The notes below the pieces were generated by a model that did no database searches, was not told the DNA's origin, and saw nothing but the letters and a program-made list of their open reading frames with translations. Below, piece after piece: positions 9,285-27,832 of a stretch of 64,000 bases of DNA. Position numbers and translations under genes: made by a program. Every line of letters starts with the position of its first letter. Position 1 is the first letter of the stretch. The stretch comes from Candidatus Moanibacter sp. (lineage in GTDB: Bacteria > Verrucomicrobiota > Verrucomicrobiia > Opitutales > UBA2987): contig CBDCEW010000099.1 of assembly GCA_965215885.1 (NCBI GenBank), forward strand, positions 32,001-96,000, given 5' to 3'.

Positions 9285-10641
9285 ATGGAAGATCTATTCT
9301 CACTCAGTCGCAGCTTTGGTCTACCAGCTTGACGAGGGGCGGCGGCGGCTATTGGGCGTTTCTGACAACCTCAAGCGCAACGGTTACACATCGAAGCTCT
9401 TCTGACAAAAAAGCGGGACTATCACCCGGCGAAGCTATCTGCAACTGTCTGGAGGCATACATCATCCGTGCTGGAGAAGCGGCAAAATTTCGGATCCAAT
9501 CTCTCGATTCTCATCGGAGCACGAGGGGTTGCGAAAAACGACCGCAATTAACTGGTTTCAGTTTATGTTGTCGAACTTTGAGCAGGATGCTTTAAGCGAG
9601 AAAATGCTCTACGTTCCGGTGGACCATTTCCTGGTAGGCCAACGTACGTTATACGAGATTACAGAAGATTTTGATCGCATTGGCGGACAACTCATCTGCT
9701 TTGATGAGATTCACAGATATTCAAACTGGTCTCGTGAACTGAAGAGTATTCATGATTCGTTCCCGAGGTTAAAAGTAATCGCATCGGGGAGTTCGGCACT
9801 TGAGGTACATCGGGGCAGCCACGATTTGACGCGTCGCGCGATCGTATACCACCTTCCTGGTCTGTCCTTTCGAGAGTTCCTTGAGCTCACGCTAAATCTG
9901 GACTTGCCGGTGCTTTCGATCGAAGATCTGGTACAGAATCATCGAGCGCTGTCGCATAGGGTCATTGAAACTGTAGAGGGAGTTGGCCATAGAATTCTTG
10001 CTCTTTTCTACCGATTTTTGAAAAGCGGTTATTATCCGCATTTTTTGGAGTTTGGTGATGACGAGACTCTTTACTTTATTACCCTTGAACAAGGGATACA
10101 TACGGCTATCGATAGTGACCTATTGACCGTGCATCCCACGCTGTCAGGCGCAAGCGTTCAGAAGATAAAGCGACTCTTGGCGTTTATCGCTCAATCAGTT
10201 CCCTTCAAGCCGGACATGGTGAAACTGAAGCGGCTCCTGGGAATCGGTGATGAGCGGACTTTGAAGACCTACTTGAAGTATCTGGAAGATGCAGCCATCA
10301 TCCGGTCTTTGTACAGTGAAGGCAAGAGTCTCGACTCTTTGAATAAGCCTGAGAAACTCTACCTAAATGACACGAATCTGGCCTATGCTTTGGGAAGGGA
10401 TAGGATTGATCCGGGCAATCAGCGAGAGACTTTTTTCTTCAGTGCGGTTTCGCCCGTGAGAACAGTTTCTTACGCTCGCGTTGGTGACTTCAGAATTGAC
10501 GACTTCGTCTTCGAAATTGGAGGGAAAAGCAAAAGTATGCAAGGGATTGAAGACATTGAACGCTCGTTCCTCGCCCTTGACGGTCTTGAAGTCGGTTACG
10601 GGCGGAAGATTCCACTCTGGCTTTTTGGTCTGCTCTACTAG
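9285..10641 (+). pseudogene. AAA_14/DUF4143-type ATP-binding protein with a disrupted 5' end
   Basis: ORF 9529-10641 has FDEIH, SGSS, GLSFREF, KLYLND, RETFF, FEIGG, IPLWLFG. ATG at 9285 (MEDLFSLSRSF). Walker A (GARGVGKTT) is split by a 1-bp insertion near 9532, and foreign fragments occupy 9317-9470. Confidence 0.8.
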
Positions 10642-13543: not shown

Positions 13544-15550
13544 ATGTCTGAAGATCAACAGTCCGAACGAGATCAGAACCCTAATCGCGGCTCTAATTCA
13601 GATCGATTCAAGCCGATTCTGATCTGGCTAGTGGTTATTGGAGCCCTCTTCAGCCTCTACTTTTTCAGCGACCCGCGTCCCCGGACTAAGAACGTGTGGA
13701 CGATCAGGGACGTCATTAAGGCGGCCGAAGAGGGGCGCATTGCGAAAGGCAACATAAAGTCGGTCCCGACGGGGGGACCGGATTGGTGCGAGATCACGGT
13801 TACCTTGAAGGAGAGTACCCAGGGCCAGGAACAGATATATGTAGCGAAGGGTCGCCTTACAGAAGGAAACCTGGAACGATTGCAGAGTACTGGGTTGTTT
13901 CAAGAGAACCCTGCCAGCACACTCTTTACTGAGATTCTCGTCACCCTTCTGCCGTTTGTAATCATCATTGGAGTTTTGTACTTTCTGTTCGTGCGGCAGC
14001 TGCGCATGGCCGGGAGAGGGGCGATGAGTTTCGGAAAAAGCCGCGCCAAGATGCTGACGCGTGAGCGCGAGAAAGTGAATTTCAAAGACGTCGCGGGATG
14101 TGACGAAGCCAAGGAGGAAGTCGAAGAGATTGTCGAATTTCTCAAAGACCCAAAGAAATTCCAGAAGATCGGTGGGCGAATTCCAAAAGGTGTGCTGCTC
14201 GTCGGGTCTCCCGGTACGGGTAAGACTCTGTTGGCCAGAGCGGTGGCGGGCGAAGCCGACGTACCTTTCTTCAGTATCAGCGGTTCCGATTTTGTGGAGA
14301 TGTTCGTTGGAGTCGGGGCCGCTCGTGTCCGCGATATGTTTGAGCAGGGCCGGAAAAACGCTCCCTGTATCGTTTTTATCGATGAAATCGACGCTGTGGG
14401 GCGTTCTCGTGGCGCTGGACTGGGAGGCGGCAATGATGAGCGCGAGCAGACTCTGAATTCGCTCCTCGTGGAGATGGATGGTTTCGATTCGCACGAAGGA
14501 GTCATTATAGTGGCGGCGACCAATCGGCCCGATGTGCTCGATCATGCGCTGCTCAGACCGGGACGGTTCGACCGGGAGGTCGTGATCGATTTGCCGGATT
14601 TGATTGGGCGAGAGGAGATCCTGAAGGTGCATGCCAAGAAAATCCAGCTTTCGGCCAAAGCCGACTTGAATATCGCTGCGCGCAATACGCCGGGATTTTC
14701 CGGAGCCGATCTCGCTAACCTTTTGAATGAGGCCGCGCTACTCGCCGCGCGCTACGAAAAGAAGGAAGTCGAGATGAGTGATCTCGACGAGGCGCGAGAA
14801 AAAATTGCTTTCGGTCGTGAGCGGCGCCGTCTCATGGATGAAGAAGACAAGAAGCTCACGGCATTTCACGAAGCGGGCCACGCTTTGGTGGCGGCAATTA
14901 TTGACGACGACCACCTTCCGATCCACAAGGTTACCATAATCCCCCGCGGGCAGAGCCTGGGAAGCACGATGTTCATGCCCAAGAAGGATATCCTGAACCA
15001 TGCCAGAAAGCGGGTCCTGAATCAGATCTGTTGGGCGATGGGTGGCCGGGTTGCCGAAGAGATGAAGTTTGACGATATCACGAGCGGCGCCGCCGGTGAC
15101 ATAAAGATGGCCACCAAGCTGGCGCGGCATATGGTATGCGACTGGGGCATGAGCGACCTTGGTCCGGTCGCATTCGGGGAGAATCAGGACCACGTCTTCC
15201 TCGGAAAAGAGTTTTCGAGGACTCAGAATTACAGTGAGGATACGGCGCTCAAAATCGATTCCGCAATTCGAGAGATTATCGACGCGCAGTATGAGAGGGC
15301 CGTCCAGCTTGCGACCGAACGACGTGAAGAATTGGAGCTGATCGCTCAGGCACTTCTCGATTACGAAACGCTTGAGGGGAAGCATGTGCAGGAGATTTTG
15401 AAATACGGCGAGATTCGCTCACCCGTGATTCGAAATCTGCAACCGGAGCCGGAAAAAGAGGAAGAATCTGTCCAGGAAGGGAAGGGTGCCAAAGATGAAC
15501 GCACCCCCGAAGAACTGGGTCCTGGAACCGAGCCCGCGCTAGCCACCTAG
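13544..15550 (+). CDS. ftsH: ATP-dependent zinc metalloprotease FtsH
   Basis: Two TM segments, [30 protein letters not shown]. Confidence 0.98.
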
Positions 15551-15583
15551 AAGCTTCCGGCTGAGAAGGAATCGAAGGAGGTT

Positions 15584-15870
15584 GCCCGCGGGTGCAGTAG
15601 CCATCCCACGGTTCCATACGGTGGACGATGGATGAAGGAGGGAAGCTCAACTGAGACTGTATTCGAGCTGGGGCTTGCAGTTGCCGGCAGGCACGGTGGG
15701 ATGGGGCGAAGCCCACGGTGGGAGAATATCCAGAAGAAAAGCCCACGGGTGCAGTAGCCATCCCACGGTTCCTCGCGGTGGACGATGGATGAAGGAGGGA
15801 AGCTCAGCTGAGACTGTATTCGAGCTGGGGACTGGTAGTATCCGGCAGGCACAGTGGGATGGGGCAAAGC
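15584..15870. repeat. Two direct copies of a ~130-bp hairpin-forming unit (period 157 bp)
   Basis: 15584-15712 matches 15741-15870; each copy has CCATCCCAC...GTGGGATGG inverted arms. Confidence 0.85.
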
Positions 15871-15877
15871 ATTTAAT

Positions 15878-15973
15878 TTGGTAATTCCCCGTCCCGGCAT
15901 GCCGGGACGGGGTCGCTGACTTTCTCAAGCATTATCGTGCGCGGAGCGCCCGACCCACCCGTAGCAAGGATGC
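15878..15973. repeat. Partial copy of family-C hairpin-ended element
   Basis: Near-identical to 35079-35168 except in the hairpin loop. Confidence 0.75.
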
Positions 15974-16552: not shown

Positions 16553-18082
16553 ATGAGTGGGCCGAAATGCGTGGAGATTGAGGCAACTCCTGATGCTTGG
16601 GAGCAGCGGCGACTGTTGAGGTCATGTGCGATCCTGCGAAGTCGATTTGAGCGTATTTTCAAGCTGCGGCGCCAGAAGCTGGAGAAACTGATGGCGCTCC
16701 GTGGAGAAACATCGTCGGCGCATTCAGTAGGACCTGAACAGGTGTTAGGCCGATTGGAATCTCTTCTCGACCGGAATGATACGCTGGAGGAGGCCGAAGA
16801 CTATATCAAAGGTCAGGTCGAGTGGATTGAACGGGAAGTAATTTCCGTAGAGAGTGAACTGCAGGGCGCGTTCGGGGCGGCGCATTCGGAGATTGCCCGT
16901 TATCGGGAATCGCGAAATCGAATCGAGGCGCTGGTTAACGGAAAACTGGTGGAACTTCATGCCCTTGGGTCGGATCTTCTGTCGGAGGAAGAGAGAAATA
17001 CACTGGAGAATCGTTTCCGGGAGGGATTGAAGTCGCTGGGCTGGCCACAAGATCCCATTGAGGAAAACGATTTTACTGGCTGGAAGGAGAAGAGCGAGCG
17101 GGCCGATGCGCTTTCCAAACTCGAAGGAGAGTTAGCGCGTCTTTGGTCCGAATTGGCTGATGGGGTTGCGAGAGACGATTCGAACGTGGCGGAACCTGCC
17201 CTGGAGCTAGGGAAGGCTAAAGCCGAATCAATCGAGAGTTTCTTGAAGGAGCACCCGGTAGAGAGGGTGAAAAGGGAATCTGCACACGATTGGGAGAAAC
17301 AGATTGGCGAGCTCTTTTCCAATATCGCGGCGAGAGGCGGGGAATCAGTTTTGGATGAGTTGATGCATGAAGCTGATAAAATCGGCCGGGAAGATGATAG
17401 CACTCGAGCGCGAATGCTCTATGAGAATCTGGTAATGGAAGCGAGCGCGAAACTGCGAGACTTGAAAGCGTTGAGGAAATTTGAGGAGAGACTGGGAGAA
17501 CTATGTGATTCGATGGAACATCTGCGAGGACGCCGGTCTGTTGAGGAGTTGGTCAATGAAATTGAGACGCTAACACAGCTCAAACGGCCGACATCCCTGG
17601 AGGAACTGGAAGTTCGGATCCAGGAAACGATAGAAAAAGAAGAAGCCGCTCAGGAAAGAGAGAGAAAGAGATATGCGATTCTTGAGTCGATTTTGGCTTT
17701 GGGCTACGAACCGCGAGAGGGATTGAAGACCGGGTTGGTGGAAGGCGGAAAATTGATTGTACGGAAGGCAGATGAAGAAGAGTATGGAGTAGAGATTGTG
17801 CTGAACGATGATTTGAGCAAAATACAGACGGCGATGGTGCGATTTGCAGAATCTGCTGAAATGACTCGGCAGCAGCGATTGAGAGATGTTGAAAGGGAGA
17901 CAGAGTGGTGCGAAGACCACGCTGACTTTCTCGGTAATCTTGAAGAGCGAGGATTCGAACCATCATTTCTGATGAAACTCGAACCGGGGGCGCATCCAGT
18001 CAAAGTTGTGGTTGAAGGGGAGGAAGGGAAGCAGAAGAGACGTGAAGATGAAGTACTTCGGAATAGGCAACTTCAGGAATGA
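16553..18082 (+). CDS. Long coiled-coil hypothetical protein
   Basis: 509 aa, E/R/L-rich heptads, MSGPK N-terminus, globular-looking C-terminus (LGYE...YGVEI...EWCEDH); ATGA overlap with the next gene. Confidence 0.8.
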   Translation: MSGPKCVEIEATPDAWEQRRLLRSCAILRSRFERIFKLRRQKLEKLMALRGETSSAHSVGPEQVLGRLESLLDRNDTLEEAEDYIKGQVEWIEREVISVESELQGAFGAAHSEIARYRESRNRIEALVNGKLVELHALGSDLLSEEERNTLENRFREGLKSLGWPQDPIEENDFTGWKEKSERADALSKLEGELARLWSELADGVARDDSNVAEPALELGKAKAESIESFLKEHPVERVKRESAHDWEKQIGELFSNIAARGGESVLDELMHEADKIGREDDSTRARMLYENLVMEASAKLRDLKALRKFEERLGELCDSMEHLRGRRSVEELVNEIETLTQLKRPTSLEELEVRIQETIEKEEAAQERERKRYAILESILALGYEPREGLKTGLVEGGKLIVRKADEEEYGVEIVLNDDLSKIQTAMVRFAESAEMTRQQRLRDVERETEWCEDHADFLGNLEERGFEPSFLMKLEPGAHPVKVVVEGEEGKQKRREDEVLRNRQLQE

Positions 18083-19959
18083 CGAGCAAGGAATTTGAAC
18101 AGAATGCAGCCACTCCGCGTTGGGTAAAGGATCTCTTCCGCTTCCTAAACGTAAAGGCACAGTTTATCCTCTCCGGTAATATTCGTGACCGGTGCTCTTT
18201 TCCTCTCGAAGGAGGAGGCGCACTTCCCCTCGAACTGCCCTCCTATCTCTCAGAGATTCTCAAATTGAGAGGTTACGATCGTTTTATTGTATTCGATAGT
18301 GTCGACGGGTTCTCTCCCATGGTACCTCGTGGTGAACAGGCGGAGAACACACACAAGTATTTTCAGGAGACTTTTTCACTGGAGTTCGACGAGCGCGGTC
18401 GGCTGGCATGTTCTCTGGAGAGGTCGCTAGAAGTTATCGAAGCTATTGTCGGTGAGCGAAATTCCCTGATTGGGATTCTAATAGATTATGCTTCGCGTTT
18501 GACAGTAAGGCAGGGAAATCTCTCAGAGTCGGAACATGAGTATTTCGCGCGTGTGCTCAAGTTGTCCCAGACGGCGCTACCCCATCCCACGGACAGGGTA
18601 AAGGAGGCGTTGTTCAACACGATATTCTGGTTGTGCGATCGCGAGAATGATTTGCCGGACTGGTTATCCCTCGATAATCCGAGAGTGCGGCAGCTGATTG
18701 TTCCGAGACCCGATCACATTGTAAGGCGAACTCTCATTACCAGTTTGAGCGCCTCTCTATCCGGATACGAAGATTGCACTTCGGAGCAAAAAGAAGTGTG
18801 CACGGATGACTTTGTGGATCAGACGGAAGGCATGATGTTATCCGAAGTTGTGGCAATCACACAGATGTGTAGAAGCGAGAATCTGCTTTTCAGTGAGGTG
18901 GGGGAAGCGGTGCGGCGCTACAAGCTCGGAGTTACGGAGGATCCATGGAAGAAGATTGATCGGAGAAAGATTGAAGACGGCGCGGAGTTCGTTGGGCGGA
19001 GAGTGAAAGGGCAGATTCAGGCGGTTACCAAATCGATGGATATCATTAAGCGTGCAGTCACAGGACTCTCCGGATCGCAGGCATCCAAGAAAGGCGGCCG
19101 GCCCCGAGGAGTGCTCTTTCTGGCAGGGCCGACAGGGGTAGGCAAGACGGAGTTGGCGAAGTCTCTCACAGAACTGCTTTTTGGTGATGAGACTGCCTAC
19201 ATACGCTTTGATATGAGCGAATTTTCAGCGGAGCACGCTGATCAACGTTTACTCGGAGCCCCTCCCGGATATGTCGGGTATGACGCGGGTGGCGAACTGA
19301 CCAATGCTATAAGGGAGAAGCCTTTTGCAGTGGTCCTCTTTGACGAAATTGAAAAGGCGCACCCGCGAATTCTGGACAAATTTCTCCAACTGCTCGACGA
19401 TGGAGTACTTACTTCAGGTCGGGGAGAGCGGGTCTACTTTTCGGAGGCGGTGATCATCTTTACTTCTAATCTGGGAATTTACAAAACCGATCCCGGTGGA
19501 CTTCGCACACCCAACGTGACGTCGGAGGATTCCTATGAAGCAGTGGCGGAGAAAATACGCGATGAGATTAATCGCTACTTTACGAGCGAACTCAACCGCC
19601 CCGAGATCCTCAACCGTATCGGTGAGAATATCGTAGTTTTCGATTTTATTCGGACGGAGGTAGCCGATCTCATATTCGAGAAAATGCTGAATAGCATTCT
19701 TGAACGCGTATTGGATGAGCAGAAAATGACGGTCGAAATACCCTCTCGATTTCTTAAAGAACTAAAAGCGCGATGTGTAGAAGATCTTTCCCATGGCGGT
19801 CGTGGAATAGGGAACCAGCTGGAAGCCTGGTTTATCAATCCCTTGGCCCGCACGCTTTTCGAAATGGAAGCCAGGGATGATTCGAAGGTCGAGGTAACAG
19901 AGTTTGGAGTGCGTGAGAATATTCCTTATCTCGCTCTAGCAGCCTGTCGGACTTTGTAA
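18079..19959 (+). CDS. ClpA/ClpB-like AAA+ ATPase (intact D2 ring, degenerate N-terminal ATPase-like domain)
   Basis: GPTGVGKTE, RFDMSEF, GAPPGYVGY, VVLFDEIEKAHP, TSN, RPEILNRI. Confidence 0.9.
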   Translation: MTSKEFEQNAATPRWVKDLFRFLNVKAQFILSGNIRDRCSFPLEGGGALPLELPSYLSEILKLRGYDRFIVFDSVDGFSPMVPRGEQAENTHKYFQETFSLEFDERGRLACSLERSLEVIEAIVGERNSLIGILIDYASRLTVRQGNLSESEHEYFARVLKLSQTALPHPTDRVKEALFNTIFWLCDRENDLPDWLSLDNPRVRQLIVPRPDHIVRRTLITSLSASLSGYEDCTSEQKEVCTDDFVDQTEGMMLSEVVAITQMCRSENLLFSEVGEAVRRYKLGVTEDPWKKIDRRKIEDGAEFVGRRVKGQIQAVTKSMDIIKRAVTGLSGSQASKKGGRPRGVLFLAGPTGVGKTELAKSLTELLFGDETAYIRFDMSEFSAEHADQRLLGAPPGYVGYDAGGELTNAIREKPFAVVLFDEIEKAHPRILDKFLQLLDDGVLTSGRGERVYFSEAVIIFTSNLGIYKTDPGGLRTPNVTSEDSYEAVAEKIRDEINRYFTSELNRPEILNRIGENIVVFDFIRTEVADLIFEKMLNSILERVLDEQKMTVEIPSRFLKELKARCVEDLSHGGRGIGNQLEAWFINPLARTLFEMEARDDSKVEVTEFGVRENIPYLALAACRTL

Positions 19960-20012
19960 TTCTTTCTAAAAGATCTCTCAAATTCATTCCGATCCCGGCT
20001 CGCCGGGACTAG
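19936..20012. repeat. CTAG-flanked family-B half element overlapping the ATPase 3' end
   Basis: CTAGCAGCCTGTCGGACTT...TCCCGGCTCGCCGGGACTAG; same layout as 10638-10693. Confidence 0.7.
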
Positions 20013-20045
20013 AAGCAAGAAAATGAAACCGAACTAAAAATACCG

Positions 20046-22232
20046 ATGGCGGCAGAGGAGACGAAACTGGAGTCAGTTCTTAGGAGAACCGTAGGCTCGC
20101 AGGGCTCAAAGGGAGAAACTCTCCTGGAGAATGCGACCGCCGGGCAGGTCACGGTCATCGAGGATGACATACAGCAATACCGCAATGACTGCATTGAATA
20201 TCTCGAAAGGGACTTTGGGAAATACGTAATTCGGGAGCCGATGCCCGTGGCTTCAGCAGAGGCGGATCTGTTTCTCGCGAATGATCGCGATACTGGTGTG
20301 GAGGTCGTGATTAAGCATTATCGTTTTGGAGTGGTGCCCAAGGTGGAGATTGCACAGAAGATTCAAGGCCCAGGCTGCGATCACATCATTGGGCTATTGG
20401 AAACAGGCGAGAAAGGAGGGCGGGTATTTGAGGTCATCGAGTATGCTCCTTTCGGAACCCTGGAGAATCTTCTGGAAGACATCAAAAGGGAGGAGAGTCT
20501 TCAACGTGAGACATTAGGCGAAATTGCGGCTGCGATCAATTACCTGCATGGAATCGATATAATTCATCGCGATATCAAACCCTCAAATATCCTCCTACGT
20601 CGACGCGATCCTCTAAACCTGGTGCTGACCGATTTCGGTATTTCGAGTGAAACGCATCTCTCACTCCATTTGACCACGACAAACCGGACCATCACCTACA
20701 GTGCGCCGGAAGCGCTGGTTGGTGTAGTGGCCCAGGCTTCGGATTGGTGGAGCCTCGGAATCATTATTCTTGAAATGACATCCGGGCGTCATCCATTTGC
20801 GGATATGACGGAGACGGCGGTGAATTTTCACCTTGTTTCGAAACCGGTTCCGGTGCCGGAGAATCTACCGGAGGAGTGGCAACAACTAATCAAGGGATTA
20901 CTCACTCGTGACCAGTACAGACGCTGGGGATACCCGGAGATCCAGCGATGGTTGGACGGGGAGACAATAATACCCCTCGATTACGAGAGTGAGACGGAAG
21001 GGGGAGTTTCAACCGGAATTTCCACGAAGCCGTATCGATTCGAAGACTCAGAGTTTGTCGATCCGCAATCCTTAGCGGAAGCGTTCGCCAAGGATTGGAG
21101 GGAGGCGATACAGCACATCGAGCGGCGCTACGTTGAGAGTTGGTTGGCCAACGATCTGGGTGATCAGCAGAGAGCCAAGCAGTTGGGGGATCTCCTTGAG
21201 GATTCGGAACTTCACCGGGATTGTTACCTTTCGCTTGCGCTACTCATCCTCAATACAGATCTTCCGCTTGTATTTAAAGGCGAGGTGGTGTCGAGGGAGT
21301 GGATGGTAAGTAATGTCAGGGACTCCATTCGCATGCTGGAATCGACGTTTCCGGATTGGCATCGGAAATTAACCGGTGATTCATGGATCGCTGATTTGAG
21401 AGATCACCGTATCTCCGTTATCAATGAGCTCGAACCTCACTATGATTTGGTCAAGGAGAGCGGGCAGAGCCCGACTCGCCCACCAATTTCGATGGGGCGA
21501 AGCAAGAAAGTGCCGGCAATGGCGGTTTCTGAAATCGTAAACCAGTATATCCTAAACGAGCCTCAAGAGATTATTGAAGGCGCCGCGAAATTTCGTGAAG
21601 GATTTCACAAAGCCAGGCATCCGTATCTGGCAAAACTCCTCAAACAATCAGAGCTTAGACTCTATGAGGCTATTCTATTGTTGTGTGCGCCACGCGATCT
21701 CTATCTCACTCGCCGACAATCTTACTTTCGCGCTCTATCGCAGTATGGCTTGAGTTTGGATCTTGCGCGTGTTGAACAGCTACTTGATTGCATACCGGAA
21801 GAGGTCGTTGAGCAGGCCATATCCTTTCGTGAGAAGTTTGCCTATAGCAATAACGAGAGGCTGCAGGAGTGTCTGCGGGTGGAGGAACTATCACTGCCGG
21901 ACGCTATTGCACTTCTTACATGTGATCCCGAATATCTGGTAACAGAGGAACAATGTAAGGGGGAGGAACAAGAGAAGCTGGTAAAGGAACGATTCGAGAA
22001 GCTGAGATCTCGTGGGTGGCCGGTTGATCGCGAATATGTCAAAGCTCTTTTCCCCTTTGGGAAATCCGAAGTCGTGCAGGAGGCATTGAAATTCAGGCAA
22101 GATTACAGAAAGGCGCTGGATCCCAATCTGCACGCACTTCTCAAGAAGGGAGATCTTTCATATGCGGAGGCTTTTGCTTTGCTGGCCTCTCCCAGAGACC
22201 TCTACGTGACGAAACTCAGATTCCGGTTATGA
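20046..22232 (+). CDS. Hanks-type Ser/Thr protein kinase with three C-terminal helical repeats
   Basis: VVIK, HRDIKPSN, DFG, YSAPE, DWWSLG; no evident TM segment. Confidence 0.92.
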   Translation: MAAEETKLESVLRRTVGSQGSKGETLLENATAGQVTVIEDDIQQYRNDCIEYLERDFGKYVIREPMPVASAEADLFLANDRDTGVEVVIKHYRFGVVPKVEIAQKIQGPGCDHIIGLLETGEKGGRVFEVIEYAPFGTLENLLEDIKREESLQRETLGEIAAAINYLHGIDIIHRDIKPSNILLRRRDPLNLVLTDFGISSETHLSLHLTTTNRTITYSAPEALVGVVAQASDWWSLGIIILEMTSGRHPFADMTETAVNFHLVSKPVPVPENLPEEWQQLIKGLLTRDQYRRWGYPEIQRWLDGETIIPLDYESETEGGVSTGISTKPYRFEDSEFVDPQSLAEAFAKDWREAIQHIERRYVESWLANDLGDQQRAKQLGDLLEDSELHRDCYLSLALLILNTDLPLVFKGEVVSREWMVSNVRDSIRMLESTFPDWHRKLTGDSWIADLRDHRISVINELEPHYDLVKESGQSPTRPPISMGRSKKVPAMAVSEIVNQYILNEPQEIIEGAAKFREGFHKARHPYLAKLLKQSELRLYEAILLLCAPRDLYLTRRQSYFRALSQYGLSLDLARVEQLLDCIPEEVVEQAISFREKFAYSNNERLQECLRVEELSLPDAIALLTCDPEYLVTEEQCKGEEQEKLVKERFEKLRSRGWPVDREYVKALFPFGKSEVVQEALKFRQDYRKALDPNLHALLKKGDLSYAEAFALLASPRDLYVTKLRFRL

Positions 22233-22234
22233 CA

Positions 22235-22402
22235 CCAGGAACCTGTCGGACTCTGTCGTCGGATTGTTATGCAAGTGCCAAATCGCGTCCGACAGGCTCC
22301 TGGTAAGAAATCTGTCGGTAGGAACTTAGCCTTAACCTGCATTGGTCGCCTTGATATCTAAACCTCGGTATATTGCGAAAGCACAAGTCCGACAGATTCC
22401 TA
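22235..22402. repeat. Two tandem family-B MITE-like elements
   Basis: IRs CCAGGAACCTGTCGGAC/GTCCGACAGGCTCCTGG (22235-22303) and AATCTGTCGG/CCGACAGATT (22304-22402). Confidence 0.75.
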
Positions 22403-23245
22403 ATGGAGATCCAAATAAACAAAGTCCACTTTCCTGTCACGACCCTAGGAGCCGCCCACCGCCAGTTGACCATTCGTTTCGGTTGTCCGGTTCTTTTGTC
22501 CTGCCCGCTGTTGATCGTGACCGGAGCGGATCCATTCCACTGGGTCATGTTCTGGGCCGTTTCGAAGTGCGAACGATCGGTCCCGAACGCGCACAGCAAC
22601 CGGGGACTCATGACCTCGCCGGCTCCGGGAATGCCACTCGGATATGGAAGGCGCGTGGGGATTTGGACACAAGGGTGTTCCATCGTGCGGTGTCCGGGTT
22701 GCGTAAGCCGGGATACGTGGGAAACGCACGCCGGTTCAGCAATTGAAGTCGACATGTTACTTGAGGGGATTTCAAAATGGTTGAGACAAGCGGACGGGGT
22801 AACAGTTTCCGGGGGGGAGCCTTTTGATCAACCGGAGGCCTTGAGTTTTCTACTTGGCAGGATTCGCGCCGAATGTTCAGGAGACATCCTCGTCTATTCT
22901 GGTTATTCGAAGGAGAGACTATTTACGAGATTTTCCCCCTTGGTAGGTAAAATCGACGTTCTCATCTCCGAACCCTACACTCACGATTGCAGTGATAACC
23001 TTTACCTGCGTGGTTCTGATAACCAGAAAATATCTTTCATAACCGACCTTGCTCGAAGTATCGATCCCGAGGGAATCAATTTCATGGAAAAACCTGACCG
23101 CCCTTCATTCGACGTCAGTTTTGATGGCGAGACACTTTGGTTGGCGGGAATTCCAAAACGCGGCGAATTGAAGCAATTCAAGGAAATCCTCCTGCGTAAC
23201 GGCTACAGCTGCGTGACATCTGAGAGTTTGATAGTGCGCGCCTAG
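22403..23245 (+). CDS. NrdG-like radical SAM (4Fe-4S single cluster) protein with an in-frame foreign insert
   Basis: HFPVTTLG...GRRVGIWTQGCS..CPGC, GVTVSGGEPFDQ, YSGY, LRGSDNQ. Confidence 0.85.
   Translation: MEIQINKVHFPVTTLGAAHRQLTIRFGCPVLLSCPLLIVTGADPFHWVMFWAVSKCERSVPNAHSNRGLMTSPAPGMPLGYGRRVGIWTQGCSIVRCPGCVSRDTWETHAGSAIEVDMLLEGISKWLRQADGVTVSGGEPFDQPEALSFLLGRIRAECSGDILVYSGYSKERLFTRFSPLVGKIDVLISEPYTHDCSDNLYLRGSDNQKISFITDLARSIDPEGINFMEKPDRPSFDVSFDGETLWLAGIPKRGELKQFKEILLRNGYSCVTSESLIVRA
22445..22636 (-). mobile_element. Internal fragment of an IS110-family transposase
   Basis: Minus strand reads IPGAGEVMSPRLLCAFGTDRSHF...GSAPVTINSG...VNWRWAAP, matching the IS110 C-terminal (Transposase_20) pattern. 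Confidence 0.7.
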
Positions 23246-23340
23246 GAAGCTGTCGGATTTCGCTTAGCGACTTTTCCGAACGCTCCTGCATTCTGGGACC
23301 ATTCGTGGATCACGGCCGATTCCACTACCGACCTCTTCCT
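23242..23340. repeat. Degenerate family-B element
   Basis: TAGGAAGCTGTCGG...CCGACCTCTTCCT; starts at the radical SAM stop codon. Confidence 0.55.
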
Positions 23341-23432
23341 CGTCACTCTAGGGGCCTTTCGGTATAGTCCGGCAGGTTCTCGTAGGATCGTTTTGCCTTC
23401 CTGCCGTTTCTTTGCCTAACTGGAATTCGAAA

Positions 23433-24071
23433 ATGGTGGAAACGTCCGATTCAAAGGTCAAGATATGTCCCAGCTGCGAAGGGGAGAATTTGTCTGTCGA
23501 CTTTTTCTGCAGGAGCTGTGGGGCGGACATTTCCTCCGTTGAGACTCAGGAAAAGGGGACCGAGTCGGAGAATAGAGAAAAGACGGATGACGAAGAGCAC
23601 CCTCATGAAGGGAAAGTATGTCCTGAATGCGGCAGCAGGGTTGAGGCGGTTTTCCCTCTTTGTTCCACATGCGGGCATGAATTTTCGGAGGAGGGTAATG
23701 AAATTCATGGGCCCGGGAGGGCGGTCGGCAAGGGGAGGTTAATCGAAGAAAGGGAGCCTCTTCAACTAGTAATCGGGGAAGACGTATTTCCGCTTGCCAA
23801 CGGTGATATTCTTGGCCGCGAAGGGACTGTGGCCGGGGATTACTTCAATACTTTTCCAACCGTTTCGCGGCAGCACCTCTTTGTAGCATTCGATGGCCGA
23901 AATTGGTCAATCTCGGTGCCGCGATCGGTAAGAAACCCTACTCTCCTCGATGGCAAAGAAATGACACGCGGTCAGATGCTCGTTCTGAGCGGGGAACATC
24001 GTGTTCAATTGTCGTCTCAATGTTCAGTAACACTGAGAGTATCTCATCACGGTTCTGGCGATGGCCCGTGA
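23433..24071 (+). CDS. Double zinc-ribbon plus FHA domain protein
   Basis: CPSC/CRSC and CPEC/CSTC pairs; FHA motifs LGR, VSRQH, NPT.LDG. Confidence 0.88.
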   Translation: MVETSDSKVKICPSCEGENLSVDFFCRSCGADISSVETQEKGTESENREKTDDEEHPHEGKVCPECGSRVEAVFPLCSTCGHEFSEEGNEIHGPGRAVGKGRLIEEREPLQLVIGEDVFPLANGDILGREGTVAGDYFNTFPTVSRQHLFVAFDGRNWSISVPRSVRNPTLLDGKEMTRGQMLVLSGEHRVQLSSQCSVTLRVSHHGSGDGP

Positions 24072-25478: not shown

Positions 25479-27832
25479 ATGATATCCAATATTAGAGAGC
25501 GAGCGATTCTGCTCCTCGTGGCTTTCGGAATTGCCAATACTACCTACGCTTCAACGCTGATCGATTACTTCGATAATGCTGTCATAGACGCCACTAAGTG
25601 GATCATCCTGCTCCCGATTGCGGATTCCGACCTCTCCGTCTCAAAAACAGCACCATCCAGTTTCGTTCACGCGGAACCCTCGCATCGACACTCAGATTCG
25701 AGGACCGGATCGAAATCGTCGGTCGATTTCAATTCAAGAGTTCCGATGATAACTTCAAAGTCGTTTTCCGCTCGAGCCTCGATTCAGTCAATGAAAGTGG
25801 GGAGAGGAACGGAATCATCGTCGCCTTCGCGAACGATGGAAACGAGGTCAGCATTCAGGAATCCCAGGAAAATTCGATGGAGATCCTCGCCGCGACACCG
25901 GTCGATCTAGAAAATGAACAGGACGTCGAATTTCGGATTAACGACGATGGTCAAATTATCGCACTTTACATCGATGACTTTCAGACTCCCCTCCTCTCCG
26001 CGAATAGCGCTTTTCGAGCCGGAGGGCATGTTGCAATCTACAACCGCGAACTCTCATCCTCGGAGTCCGAATTGGACTTCGTATTCGTGGCTAACGATTC
26101 TGGAGGTGGGATAGGACAGAAATTCAGCGCATCCATTCGCGCTAATTCCTTCTCCTTTTCTCTCGGAAGCACCCGCATAAACACGGCGGACACTGTAGTT
26201 TTCACCACATACGACGGCCTGTCTGAGACACCTCTCTTCGACACTTTTGGCTCTGCGGTGGTCGTGAGCGGTGAATTCAAACCTGTGCCAATTGGAAGTA
26301 CGACATACCGCTCTGACTACGGCGTAATCGATCCGGACGGAAATCTGAACGAATTTGGCACGGTGACCACGCAATTTCCCGAGGTGGACACCGATGGCAA
26401 CGGCGTTGTCGATTCCTTGCAGATCGAGAACAGCACTTCTCTTACAATAAGCGGAACAGCGGTTCCCGACTTCAGTGCAAGTGGTACTGGTGATTCTGTC
26501 TTTACGGTATCGCTCACACGCATGCCGGGTGCTTCATTCGGCAATTACGCCGGCCAATTCTCAAACGCGGTAAACTCCTCTTCTTTCGAGGGGATATTCG
26601 GTCTCCTTGATGTCAGCGGCTTCGCCTTTTACGGGATGGCCACGTCAAACACGATCGAGATAAATCTGGAGAGTCGCTCGCTCGGCTTGCTCCTTCTGGA
26701 TTTGAGTGGCCTTACGACATTCCGCATCGACGGGCTGGATCAACTCACGATTGATTCGTTTACTCTCATCGACCGCCCAACAGGCGATGAATTTGGTGTA
26801 TTCGAATCTGTCCTTACTCGCAATGGCGATACTTATCGGGGCGAGTTTGAGATCTTTGACGGACTTCAAAACACCTCCTGGCGCGACTTTCAAAATTATG
26901 TCATCGAAGTCACGGATCCAAATGATAGTGATAATGACGGAATTCCAAACCTGACCGATCCCGTTCCCAGTCAGGACGACTCCGATTCAATCTTATTGTC
27001 GGGTAGCGCCCGCCTCGTCAACGACCGCACCCTCTTTCAGGATAATATCTACAATGGATTTGAGTTGAGCGGCCCCCGCGCTTCTTTCTCGTCGCGTCCC
27101 GGTGAAATCACAAGAGTGTCTTTCATTGATCCGGACGGCGATCTCATCTTCGTCGAGTTCGGAAGTGACGATGAAAACACCTTATTGACGATTTTACTCG
27201 AGGATTTCCAGGAACCGCAACCTTCTCCCTACACCCAACCGGGGACACGCTATGTAGAGGGCCTTGCTAATATCACAATCGACAATCCCACGCCGGCAAC
27301 CTTCATCTCCATCTTTTCCCTTGGAAACGACGCTGCCCGAGTGGACCCTTCACTCATAAACATTCAGACCCTGGAAATTCCTGTTGATGGAATCGCGGAC
27401 GTTAAGTTCCTTCGGATAAATGCCCCCGAAGGGATGCAGGCGACCATTGGAGGCATAAACGCCGCCAATGCCGACTTTACGGGAAGGTTCGGATTTGTCG
27501 GTATCGACGCGCTCAATACCAACGTCAACCTCTTTCTCTTTATCGGAGACATTACTCCCTTGGACTCAGCGCTTCCAAGAATCATCGTAAACCCGGATTC
27601 CCCCATCTCGGAAATTCGAATTACCGGTGGAGACCTCCGCGAGGCAACCGAAGACAAGCAGATAGACACGAACGGAGCGGTATATTTCTTTGATATCATC
27701 GCTGACGAAGGCCAGCGCTCAATAAGCAACGGATTTCTGCGCTTCGATCTCGGCGACGGAAGTATTCCAGCGGCGACCGATACCTTCGAGGAAAATATCG
27801 ATAGTTACTTCGTGACCGACGGTCAAAGATGA
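25479..27832 (+). CDS. Large secreted acidic beta-rich protein; signal-peptide segment frameshifted near 25642
   Basis: The signal-like MISNIRERAILLLVAFGIANTTYA frame joins ORF 25598-27832 if one A is added to the A5 run. DxDxNG/DxDxDG Ca-binding-like motifs present. Confidence 0.7.

Follow-up and report, generated by a model that had tools for sequence, protein, structure and literature searches.

A mobile gene cassette built on a coiled-coil protein and a chimeric tandem AAA+ ATPase in Candidatus Moanibacter sp.

A five-gene cassette of 7.5 kb was analysed in the genome of Candidatus Moanibacter sp. (assembly GCA_965215885.1, here G000), within a 64,000-nt stretch of contig CBDCEW010000099.1 (positions 32001 to 96000, forward strand) that is called the window below and to which all coordinates refer. 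The cassette is real, mobile and rare, and is scattered across phyla in shuffled gene order. Its constant core consists of a coiled-coil (CC) protein and an ATPase, usually with a radical SAM enzyme, and the module is apparently undescribed, its novelty lying in the composition, the CC family and the chimeric motor. We give an even chance to the reading that the CC protein and the chimeric AAA+ ATPase, usually with an orphan glycyl-radical-activase-like enzyme, form the core of a mobile anti-invader (defence) system. The five genes are as follows.

16553-18082, plus strand: CC protein, 509 aa, AlphaFold model with predicted local distance difference test score (pLDDT) 84
18079-19959, plus strand: chimeric tandem AAA+ ATPase, 626 aa, model pLDDT 92.5
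20046-22232, plus strand: Ser/Thr kinase, 728 aa, Pkinase E 2e-37
22403-23245, plus strand: NrdG/PflA-like radical SAM enzyme, ~215 aa after discounting assembly errors, Fer4_12 E 2.6e-23
23433-24071, plus strand: double zinc ribbon and FHA protein (frame open from 23412), DZR E 2.8e-8, FHA E 0.0086

The open reading frames (ORFs) of the last two genes run, as assembled, from 22373 to 23245 and from 23412 to 24071, the true start of the radical SAM gene being the ATG at 22403; the first two ORFs are joined by an ATGA overlap at 18079-18082. In Pfam searches of the five proteins AAA_2, Pkinase, Fer4_12 and DZR passed the cut-off and the FHA match was weak.

Gene neighbourhoods were compared in 95 collected loci, 30 of which had enough flank (the window included; L105 and L106 are duplicates), a set biased to close relatives. 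The radical SAM and kinase genes were each present at 28 of these 30 loci and the CC gene at 25; two of the five CC misses were cut by the locus end, one was an MSGPK protein unseen by the profile, and L017 and L131 had none. An unbiased set was formed by 16 strong matches from three phylum samples, some on short contigs, and here a CC-like gene was adjacent at 14 loci, while radical SAM was present at 10, a kinase at 9 and FHA at 4. A contig scan for ATPase relatives was flooded by ClpB (true orthologues at 9 of 80 loci). Gene order at L096 is exactly that of the window and is otherwise shuffled.

Three subtypes were distinguished. Subtype A is the window's own clade (10 loci, support 0.996), with an active kinase, FHA, often a PP2C phosphatase, and locus-specific kinase tails. 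Subtype B comprises the ATPase, radical SAM, a ~2100-aa zinc-ribbon-kinase-DUF4011-helicase-nuclease and CC, and is complete at 15 of 16 Pseudomonas loci; the long kinases match Hhe (E 9e-65) and PDC-S37 (E 5e-148), and DUF4011, a superfamily 1 (SF1) helicase and a Vsr-like nuclease were found in five of the six scanned, the sixth having the first half only. In subtype C the core stands beside vWA, PP2C, kinase and MkoA-like helicase genes (L181) or beside vWA and Hsp70 (L227). Other arrangements were seen as well. At L012 (8813-14212) CC and ATPase occur without kinase or radical SAM, and genes for an RtcB-family ligase and an RF-1-domain protein come next; in the Clostridia loci L014, L016 and L017 the ATPase, again without radical SAM or kinase, is followed by a ~245-aa protein without a Pfam family. 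Next to the proteobacterial subtype, 17 loci, many of them related, have a gene for a nuclease/RNase H/SF1-helicase protein of ~1130 aa; L126, L127, L130, L133, L136, L139, L145 and L158 are among them.

Distribution was counted with a profile of the ATPase N-terminal module, the genome on which each search was centred being excluded. Matches were obtained in 1 of 400 genomes of the window's own phylum, 17 of 400 Pseudomonas, 7 of 400 and 4 of 300 in the phyla of L011 and L018, and 12 of 200 in the phylum of L063 (5 of them strong), as well as in 9 plasmid records. None of 50,697 phage records matched; one IMG/VR contig did, and is cut at its end. No full-length ATPase orthologue was found in 40 relatives, which gave ClpB/C-type matches only. 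The candidate system of the initial annotation is supported as a conserved accessory module: the homologues co-occur elsewhere and are not a core locus of the order. At L188, L219, L223, L092 and L163 the cassette is broken, its ATPase or kinase-helicase gene being split, which is consistent with frequent cassette loss.

The motor is a dead classical AAA module (residues 1-290) joined to an intact Clp-D2 motor (293-607), so that the description of the ATPase as single-ring had to be given up. The best folds for module 1 were FtsHi, p97, VAT and Vps4 (Z 12-13, root-mean-square deviation (rmsd) 3.2-3.9 over ~210 residues), Foldseek agreed, and no Clp chain was among the structure matches listed. 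Module 1 lacks the Walker A Lys and the Walker B Glu, and its Walker positions read LSGN(x)RD and DFASR. In the second module Walker A, GYVG, DE, the Arg finger and sensor 2 are kept in 183-188 of 188 cases, variable Val positions excepted, and TIGR03346 matches residues 292-607 at E 4e-72. The protein nevertheless scores below the NCBIfam cut-offs for ClpA, ClpB and TssH (243.8 vs 1232, 207.8 vs 885 and 194.3 vs 993 bits, respectively). An IGF/L tripeptide, which we take to be the ClpP-docking loop motif, was not found in the ATPase; in its place the loop that follows sensor 1 shows G-x-R-x-x-N-V as a conserved motif. The module 1 profile also detects tandem AAAs with a classical second module (E 5e-14 to 7e-11), one of which (L231) adjoins a PspA_IM30 gene.

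In the model of the CC protein an N-terminal strand (residues 5-11) and a C-terminal alpha/beta region (~385-487) form one small domain, with helical bundles between them; structure matches span residues 3-471. All 149 sequences compared, whose mean identity is ~33%, have M1-S-G-P4, G384-Y385, Q425, E449 and C453, and this invariance suggests a chemical or docking site and not a plain coiled coil. The family comprises 1638 clusters at E<=1e-10, and the protein had no match in Pfam, NCBIfam or PADLOC. The terminal domain resembles KA1 of Chk1 (Z 8.6, rmsd 2.7, 88 residues aligned) and the corresponding AMPK, TUT1 and SAD-B structures (Z 7.7-8.1) at near background level. Foldseek returned no matches at E<=0.001 against PDB or BFVD, PspA and ESCRT-III chains were absent among the 50 structure matches listed, and matches in Atlas were to unnamed clusters only, with none for the C-terminal part. 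A Ycf35/DUF2997 fusion was considered and was unsupported (hhalign <=7.6% to DUF2997/DUF1257, with 1 of 30 shuffles scoring higher). The cyanobacterial-type CC has a weak profile link to that of the window (3.6%), and homology between them rests on gene position, an MSG(S/T)PK start and the Cys. The divergent CC proteins of L224, L226-L229 and L218 also begin MSG(S/T)PK, their conserved N-terminus thereby gaining a Ser/Thr-Pro site.

The best profile matches of the radical SAM protein were NrdG and PflA, the nearest solved structure was PFL activase (E 4.9e-7), and GGEP and the short size are as in NrdG/PflA. The score against the NrdG equivalog cut-off was 83.6 vs 126.1 bits, the ORF being scored with its artefacts. 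CxxxCxxC is present in 56 of 59 homologous ORFs and was not found in three short ones. In the window the ORF carries an assembly artefact.

22445-22636: 192 nt, in frame, a reversed piece of IS110, with 3 extra nt at 22685

The 192-nt insert has the exact sequence of an internal part of the transposase gene of this genome's IS110 element (family assigned by Pfam). As assembled, a segment that measures 3 residues in homologues is 67 residues long in this protein, and CxxxCxxC appears as Cx4Cx2C; the motif is restored once the 3-nt error is discounted. In contigs of all three DNA-type public runs, which come from two studies, position 22444 is followed directly by 22637; the 3 nt are missing from X1 and X2, and none of the contigs listed supports the inserted form. 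Because the contigs skip the 192 nt, the insert is most likely an assembly error and the gene intact, encoding ~215 aa. Disruption of the gene by an IS fragment was rejected on the same contigs; contigs drop rare variants, and a rare real variant is conceivable. One run, possibly the source sample, showed no other letter difference over stretches of 4080 and 2508 bases. The IS110 element itself (~1.7 kb) lies at G000:C104:324373-325680 (L214:174-1481, minus strand) and at 10 other places in the genome; there are 10 full copies, one copy is at a contig end, and the 99.8-100% identity of the full copies indicates recent activity.

Like the window, for which the initial annotation had noted no glycyl-radical enzyme, the 90%-complete genome gave no PF01228 match; such an enzyme is present in one of five other cassette hosts and lacking in four. 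With no such enzyme in the window's genome, the radical SAM enzyme would modify one of the system's own proteins, CC being the likeliest target and its free Ser-Gly-Pro N-terminus and invariant Cys453 the candidate sites. A more specific version, which we consider distinctly unlikely, makes CC a protein-radical carrier, in which the activase puts a radical on the N-terminal glycine, the radical is relayed to Cys453, and the motor exposes or resets the site. If true, the core would be a radical-armed switch bolted onto Hhe-like and TerY-P/Mokosh-like effectors and membrane kinases, and CC a partner of glycyl-radical type that does not belong to the known enzymes with a ten-stranded barrel, bringing protein-radical chemistry into immunity. 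Alternatively, the enzyme might make or modify a small molecule or nucleotide in the manner of viperin or QueE, as a signal or toxin, with CC and the motor serving for control only. A weak QueE match (E 0.001), the lack of an identified protein substrate and the lack of another candidate effector in the window's copy speak for this possibility; the best matches are to the protein-acting activases NrdG and PflA, and the enzyme is missing from 6 of the 16 unbiased loci (some on short contigs), and we regard it as improbable.

The window's kinase has its catalytic K/D/K/N/D intact, a conserved helical region (~330-470) and three ~75-aa helical repeats (498-560, 576-638 and 665-727), and has no C-terminal tail. 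Among the other full-length kinases of its clade six of eight have transmembrane (TM) segments, and seven of eight have TM segments or a further domain; the L103 kinase is also tailless. Tails across the loci include Sel1, a PQQ propeller, FtsK-gamma, FGE-sulfatase, TM segments and DUF4011-helicase-MTES_1575. Hydropathy showed no TM segments in the five proteins, the sole peak falling inside the artefactual radical SAM insert; the cytoplasmic character read from the sequence is not supported for the family at large. In the FHA protein the G-R and S-x-x-H positions, presumably the FHA motif, are kept in the alignment. Pfam found neither PP2C nor vWA among the five cassette genes, and the genome's one other PP2C is on another contig; the reported absence of a phosphatase stands for this copy and fails for the family, PP2C being present at six distinct loci among the closest (Verrucomicrobia-type) ones and lacking at L096 and L100. 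Phosphorylation gating is likewise not a general feature: 34 relatives have dead kinases (catalytic Lys, Asn or DFG Asp lost). At least 30 of these 34 are joined to the helicase part, and FHA and PP2C are absent from all loci with dead kinases, whereas the kinases beside FHA/PP2C are active in 9 of 9 cases; four helicase-fused kinases are still active.

These features bear on whether the window's copy is reduced or decaying in a family that is otherwise functional, which would be compatible with the other readings and which we hold to be rather unlikely. The kinase stops after its third repeat where seven of eight sisters continue into TM segments or a further domain, PP2C is missing from the cassette, and one contig of run X2 (depth 2.65) joins a degraded CC 5' end (16663-16877) to 24259, possibly from a co-occurring strain that has lost the cassette. 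Against decay, all catalytic motifs are intact, the radical SAM lesion is an artefact, L096 and L100 also lack PP2C and L103 a tail, and sequencing runs of the two studies differ at few positions across the cassette genes.

The cassette is an insertion into a conserved housekeeping locus, since ftsH is followed by rpoZ and smpB within ~2 kb in six of seven genomes of the same family. The initial annotation had placed five co-oriented genes, the first pair coupled by ATGA, between ftsH and a small basic protein gene, and this arrangement was confirmed. The flanking features are as follows.

13544-15550: ftsH, left neighbour of the cassette
15580-15970: left flank, clustered short dispersed repeats, each position with ~40-65 matches in the genome
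24090-24260: right flank, a short dispersed repeat, each position with ~165-200 matches in the genome
24286-24444, minus strand: small basic protein gene (presumed name), 52 codons, right neighbour of the cassette

Dispersed short repeats, with tens to ~200 genome matches, also lie in the intergenic stretches 19983-20033, 22235-22400 and 23246-23350; no Rfam family matched the intergenic repeats of the cassette, and a promoter/terminator scan of it gave results at chance level. Contigs of RNA run X8 cover the CC, ATPase and kinase genes and cannot show transcription. A second insertion in the same region is the 744-aa acidic, beta-rich ORF at 25598-27832 (plus strand) between rpoZ and smpB, which was not found there in the seven relatives examined. 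An AAA_14 and DUF4143 ATPase (9529-10641, plus strand) lies upstream of serS.

Three points favour the defence reading: the core is joined to components of listed antiviral systems in two subtypes, the tails are interchangeable and the distribution is patchy. In the proposed mechanism the motor would act as a remodeller and not as a protease feeder, the dead ring docking CC and the D2 ring threading it. The state of CC would then license or restrain the module carried on the kinase polypeptide; in proteobacteria this module would be an effector with helicase and nuclease parts, and in the window's clade a sensor of membrane or repeat type; kinase, FHA and PP2C would form an added on/off layer, here without PP2C. 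The conflict or stress module proposed in the initial annotation is plausible in its conflict role, in that other subtypes carry Hhe-like or TerY-P-like parts; its gating and its cytoplasmic location lack support as general traits.

Neighbours of the cassette include JetA, JetABC, SduA, MzaE, a type IV restriction endonuclease, PDC-S41, ThsB and Lamassu. The defence-neighbour scan covered 129 of 148 neighbour proteins, with L014, L016, L017 and L019 (size) and plasmid and duplicate loci excluded, and near-full-length, defence-specific matches only were counted in both the cassette loci and a control of 30 of 71 ClpB loci; MkoA-like helicase halves, DrmC/DrmD parts, cysteine desulfurase, TnpB-like proteins and ABC ATPases were dropped. 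Several results weigh against a defence role. Defence neighbours within 2.5 kb were found at 6 of 56 loci vs 1 of 30 controls (p = 0.41). In the window's copy no effector can be recognised, and no defence neighbour was seen among the flanking proteins examined; its GC content resembles the surroundings and is host-like, and many Pseudomonas copies lie among housekeeping genes. Of the dead kinases, 33 group in a single clade and L137 stands apart, and kinase inactivation therefore represents one or two events, not 34. Loci without radical SAM (L224, L225, L226 and L228) keep the CC Cys, which therefore is not there only as a target of that enzyme. A complex prediction of radical SAM, dead AAA module and CC from L011, with 4Fe-4S, gave a median of 0.41 vs 0.55 for an AAA-replaced control and counts neither way.

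The non-significant enrichment speaks for a rival reading, envelope or stress remodelling, in which CC would be a polymer or scaffold that the tandem AAA recycles as its client, a relation that has been proposed for PspA and its tandem AAA, membrane kinases would sense envelope signals, and the helicase-nuclease fusion would be one lineage's addition. The dead module is akin to those of tandem AAAs, one of them beside a PspA gene (L231), and many kinases have TM segments. We nonetheless consider this unlikely: CC has no PspA match (no PF04012 matches at E<=0.1), the distribution is far patchier than that of housekeeping stress systems, and nuclease or helicase effectors occur in two separate subtypes. 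If the defence reading is right, more than 1,600 divergent CC clusters would join bacterial immunity, the orphan NrdG-like enzyme would gain a partner, and the core would be a reusable control unit atop known effectors; the compact four-gene Pseudomonas form is directly testable.

No description of the system was found in the searchable full texts; the neighbourhood could be listed in supplementary files, namely those of PMC7159879 and of PMC11237479 (Text S2.2). The class I Clp/Hsp100 proteins (ClpA, ClpB, ClpC and ClpV) share the D2 motor with all catalytic and pore motifs; they have two active modules, whereas here the first is dead and of p97/FtsH type, there is no Clp_N, and the gene belongs to a dedicated cassette. 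The NrdG/PflA activases share CxxxCxxC, GGEP and short size with the radical SAM enzyme, which has no glycyl-radical enzyme in the window's genome or in the loci examined. No recurring neighbour cluster resembled a type VI secretion system, for which no profiles were run. Hhe (DUF4011-SF1 helicase-Vsr-like) supplies domains that are fused to the kinase in other subtypes and absent from that of the window. TerY-P is a triad of vWA, PP2C and kinase, present at L181, and the window's cassette has neither vWA nor PP2C; the MkoA-like helicase of Mokosh stands beside the kinase at L181 and has no counterpart in the window's copy. Hhe and TerY-P were reportedly validated in a 2020 study, and to our knowledge Hhe, TerY-P and Mokosh are known without the CC/AAA/radical SAM core. 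All three are counted as antiviral systems in the accessible part of PMC13223576 (antiviral listing also in that of PMC11232893). PMC10853773, in the part available, is unrelated. The accessible part of PMC11237479 mentions a PspA-associated tandem AAA+ family with an inactive N-terminal copy, with which the tandem AAAs detected by the module 1 profile agree and which is similar in its related dead N-terminal module and in a gene beside that of a coiled-coil protein; there the second module is classical and the partner PspA (L231), and here they are Clp-D2 and CC. The NTP-dependent ternary conflict systems of PMC7159879, the closest paper, combine, as far as it is accessible, a conserved chaperone core with interchangeable modules (FGS, propellers, kinases and FHA), and one FtsH subtype has radical SAM; the systems described there use MoxR and vWA or other NTPases, with no Clp-like core among them, whereas the window's cassette has an AAA_2/Clp-like ATPase and no vWA.

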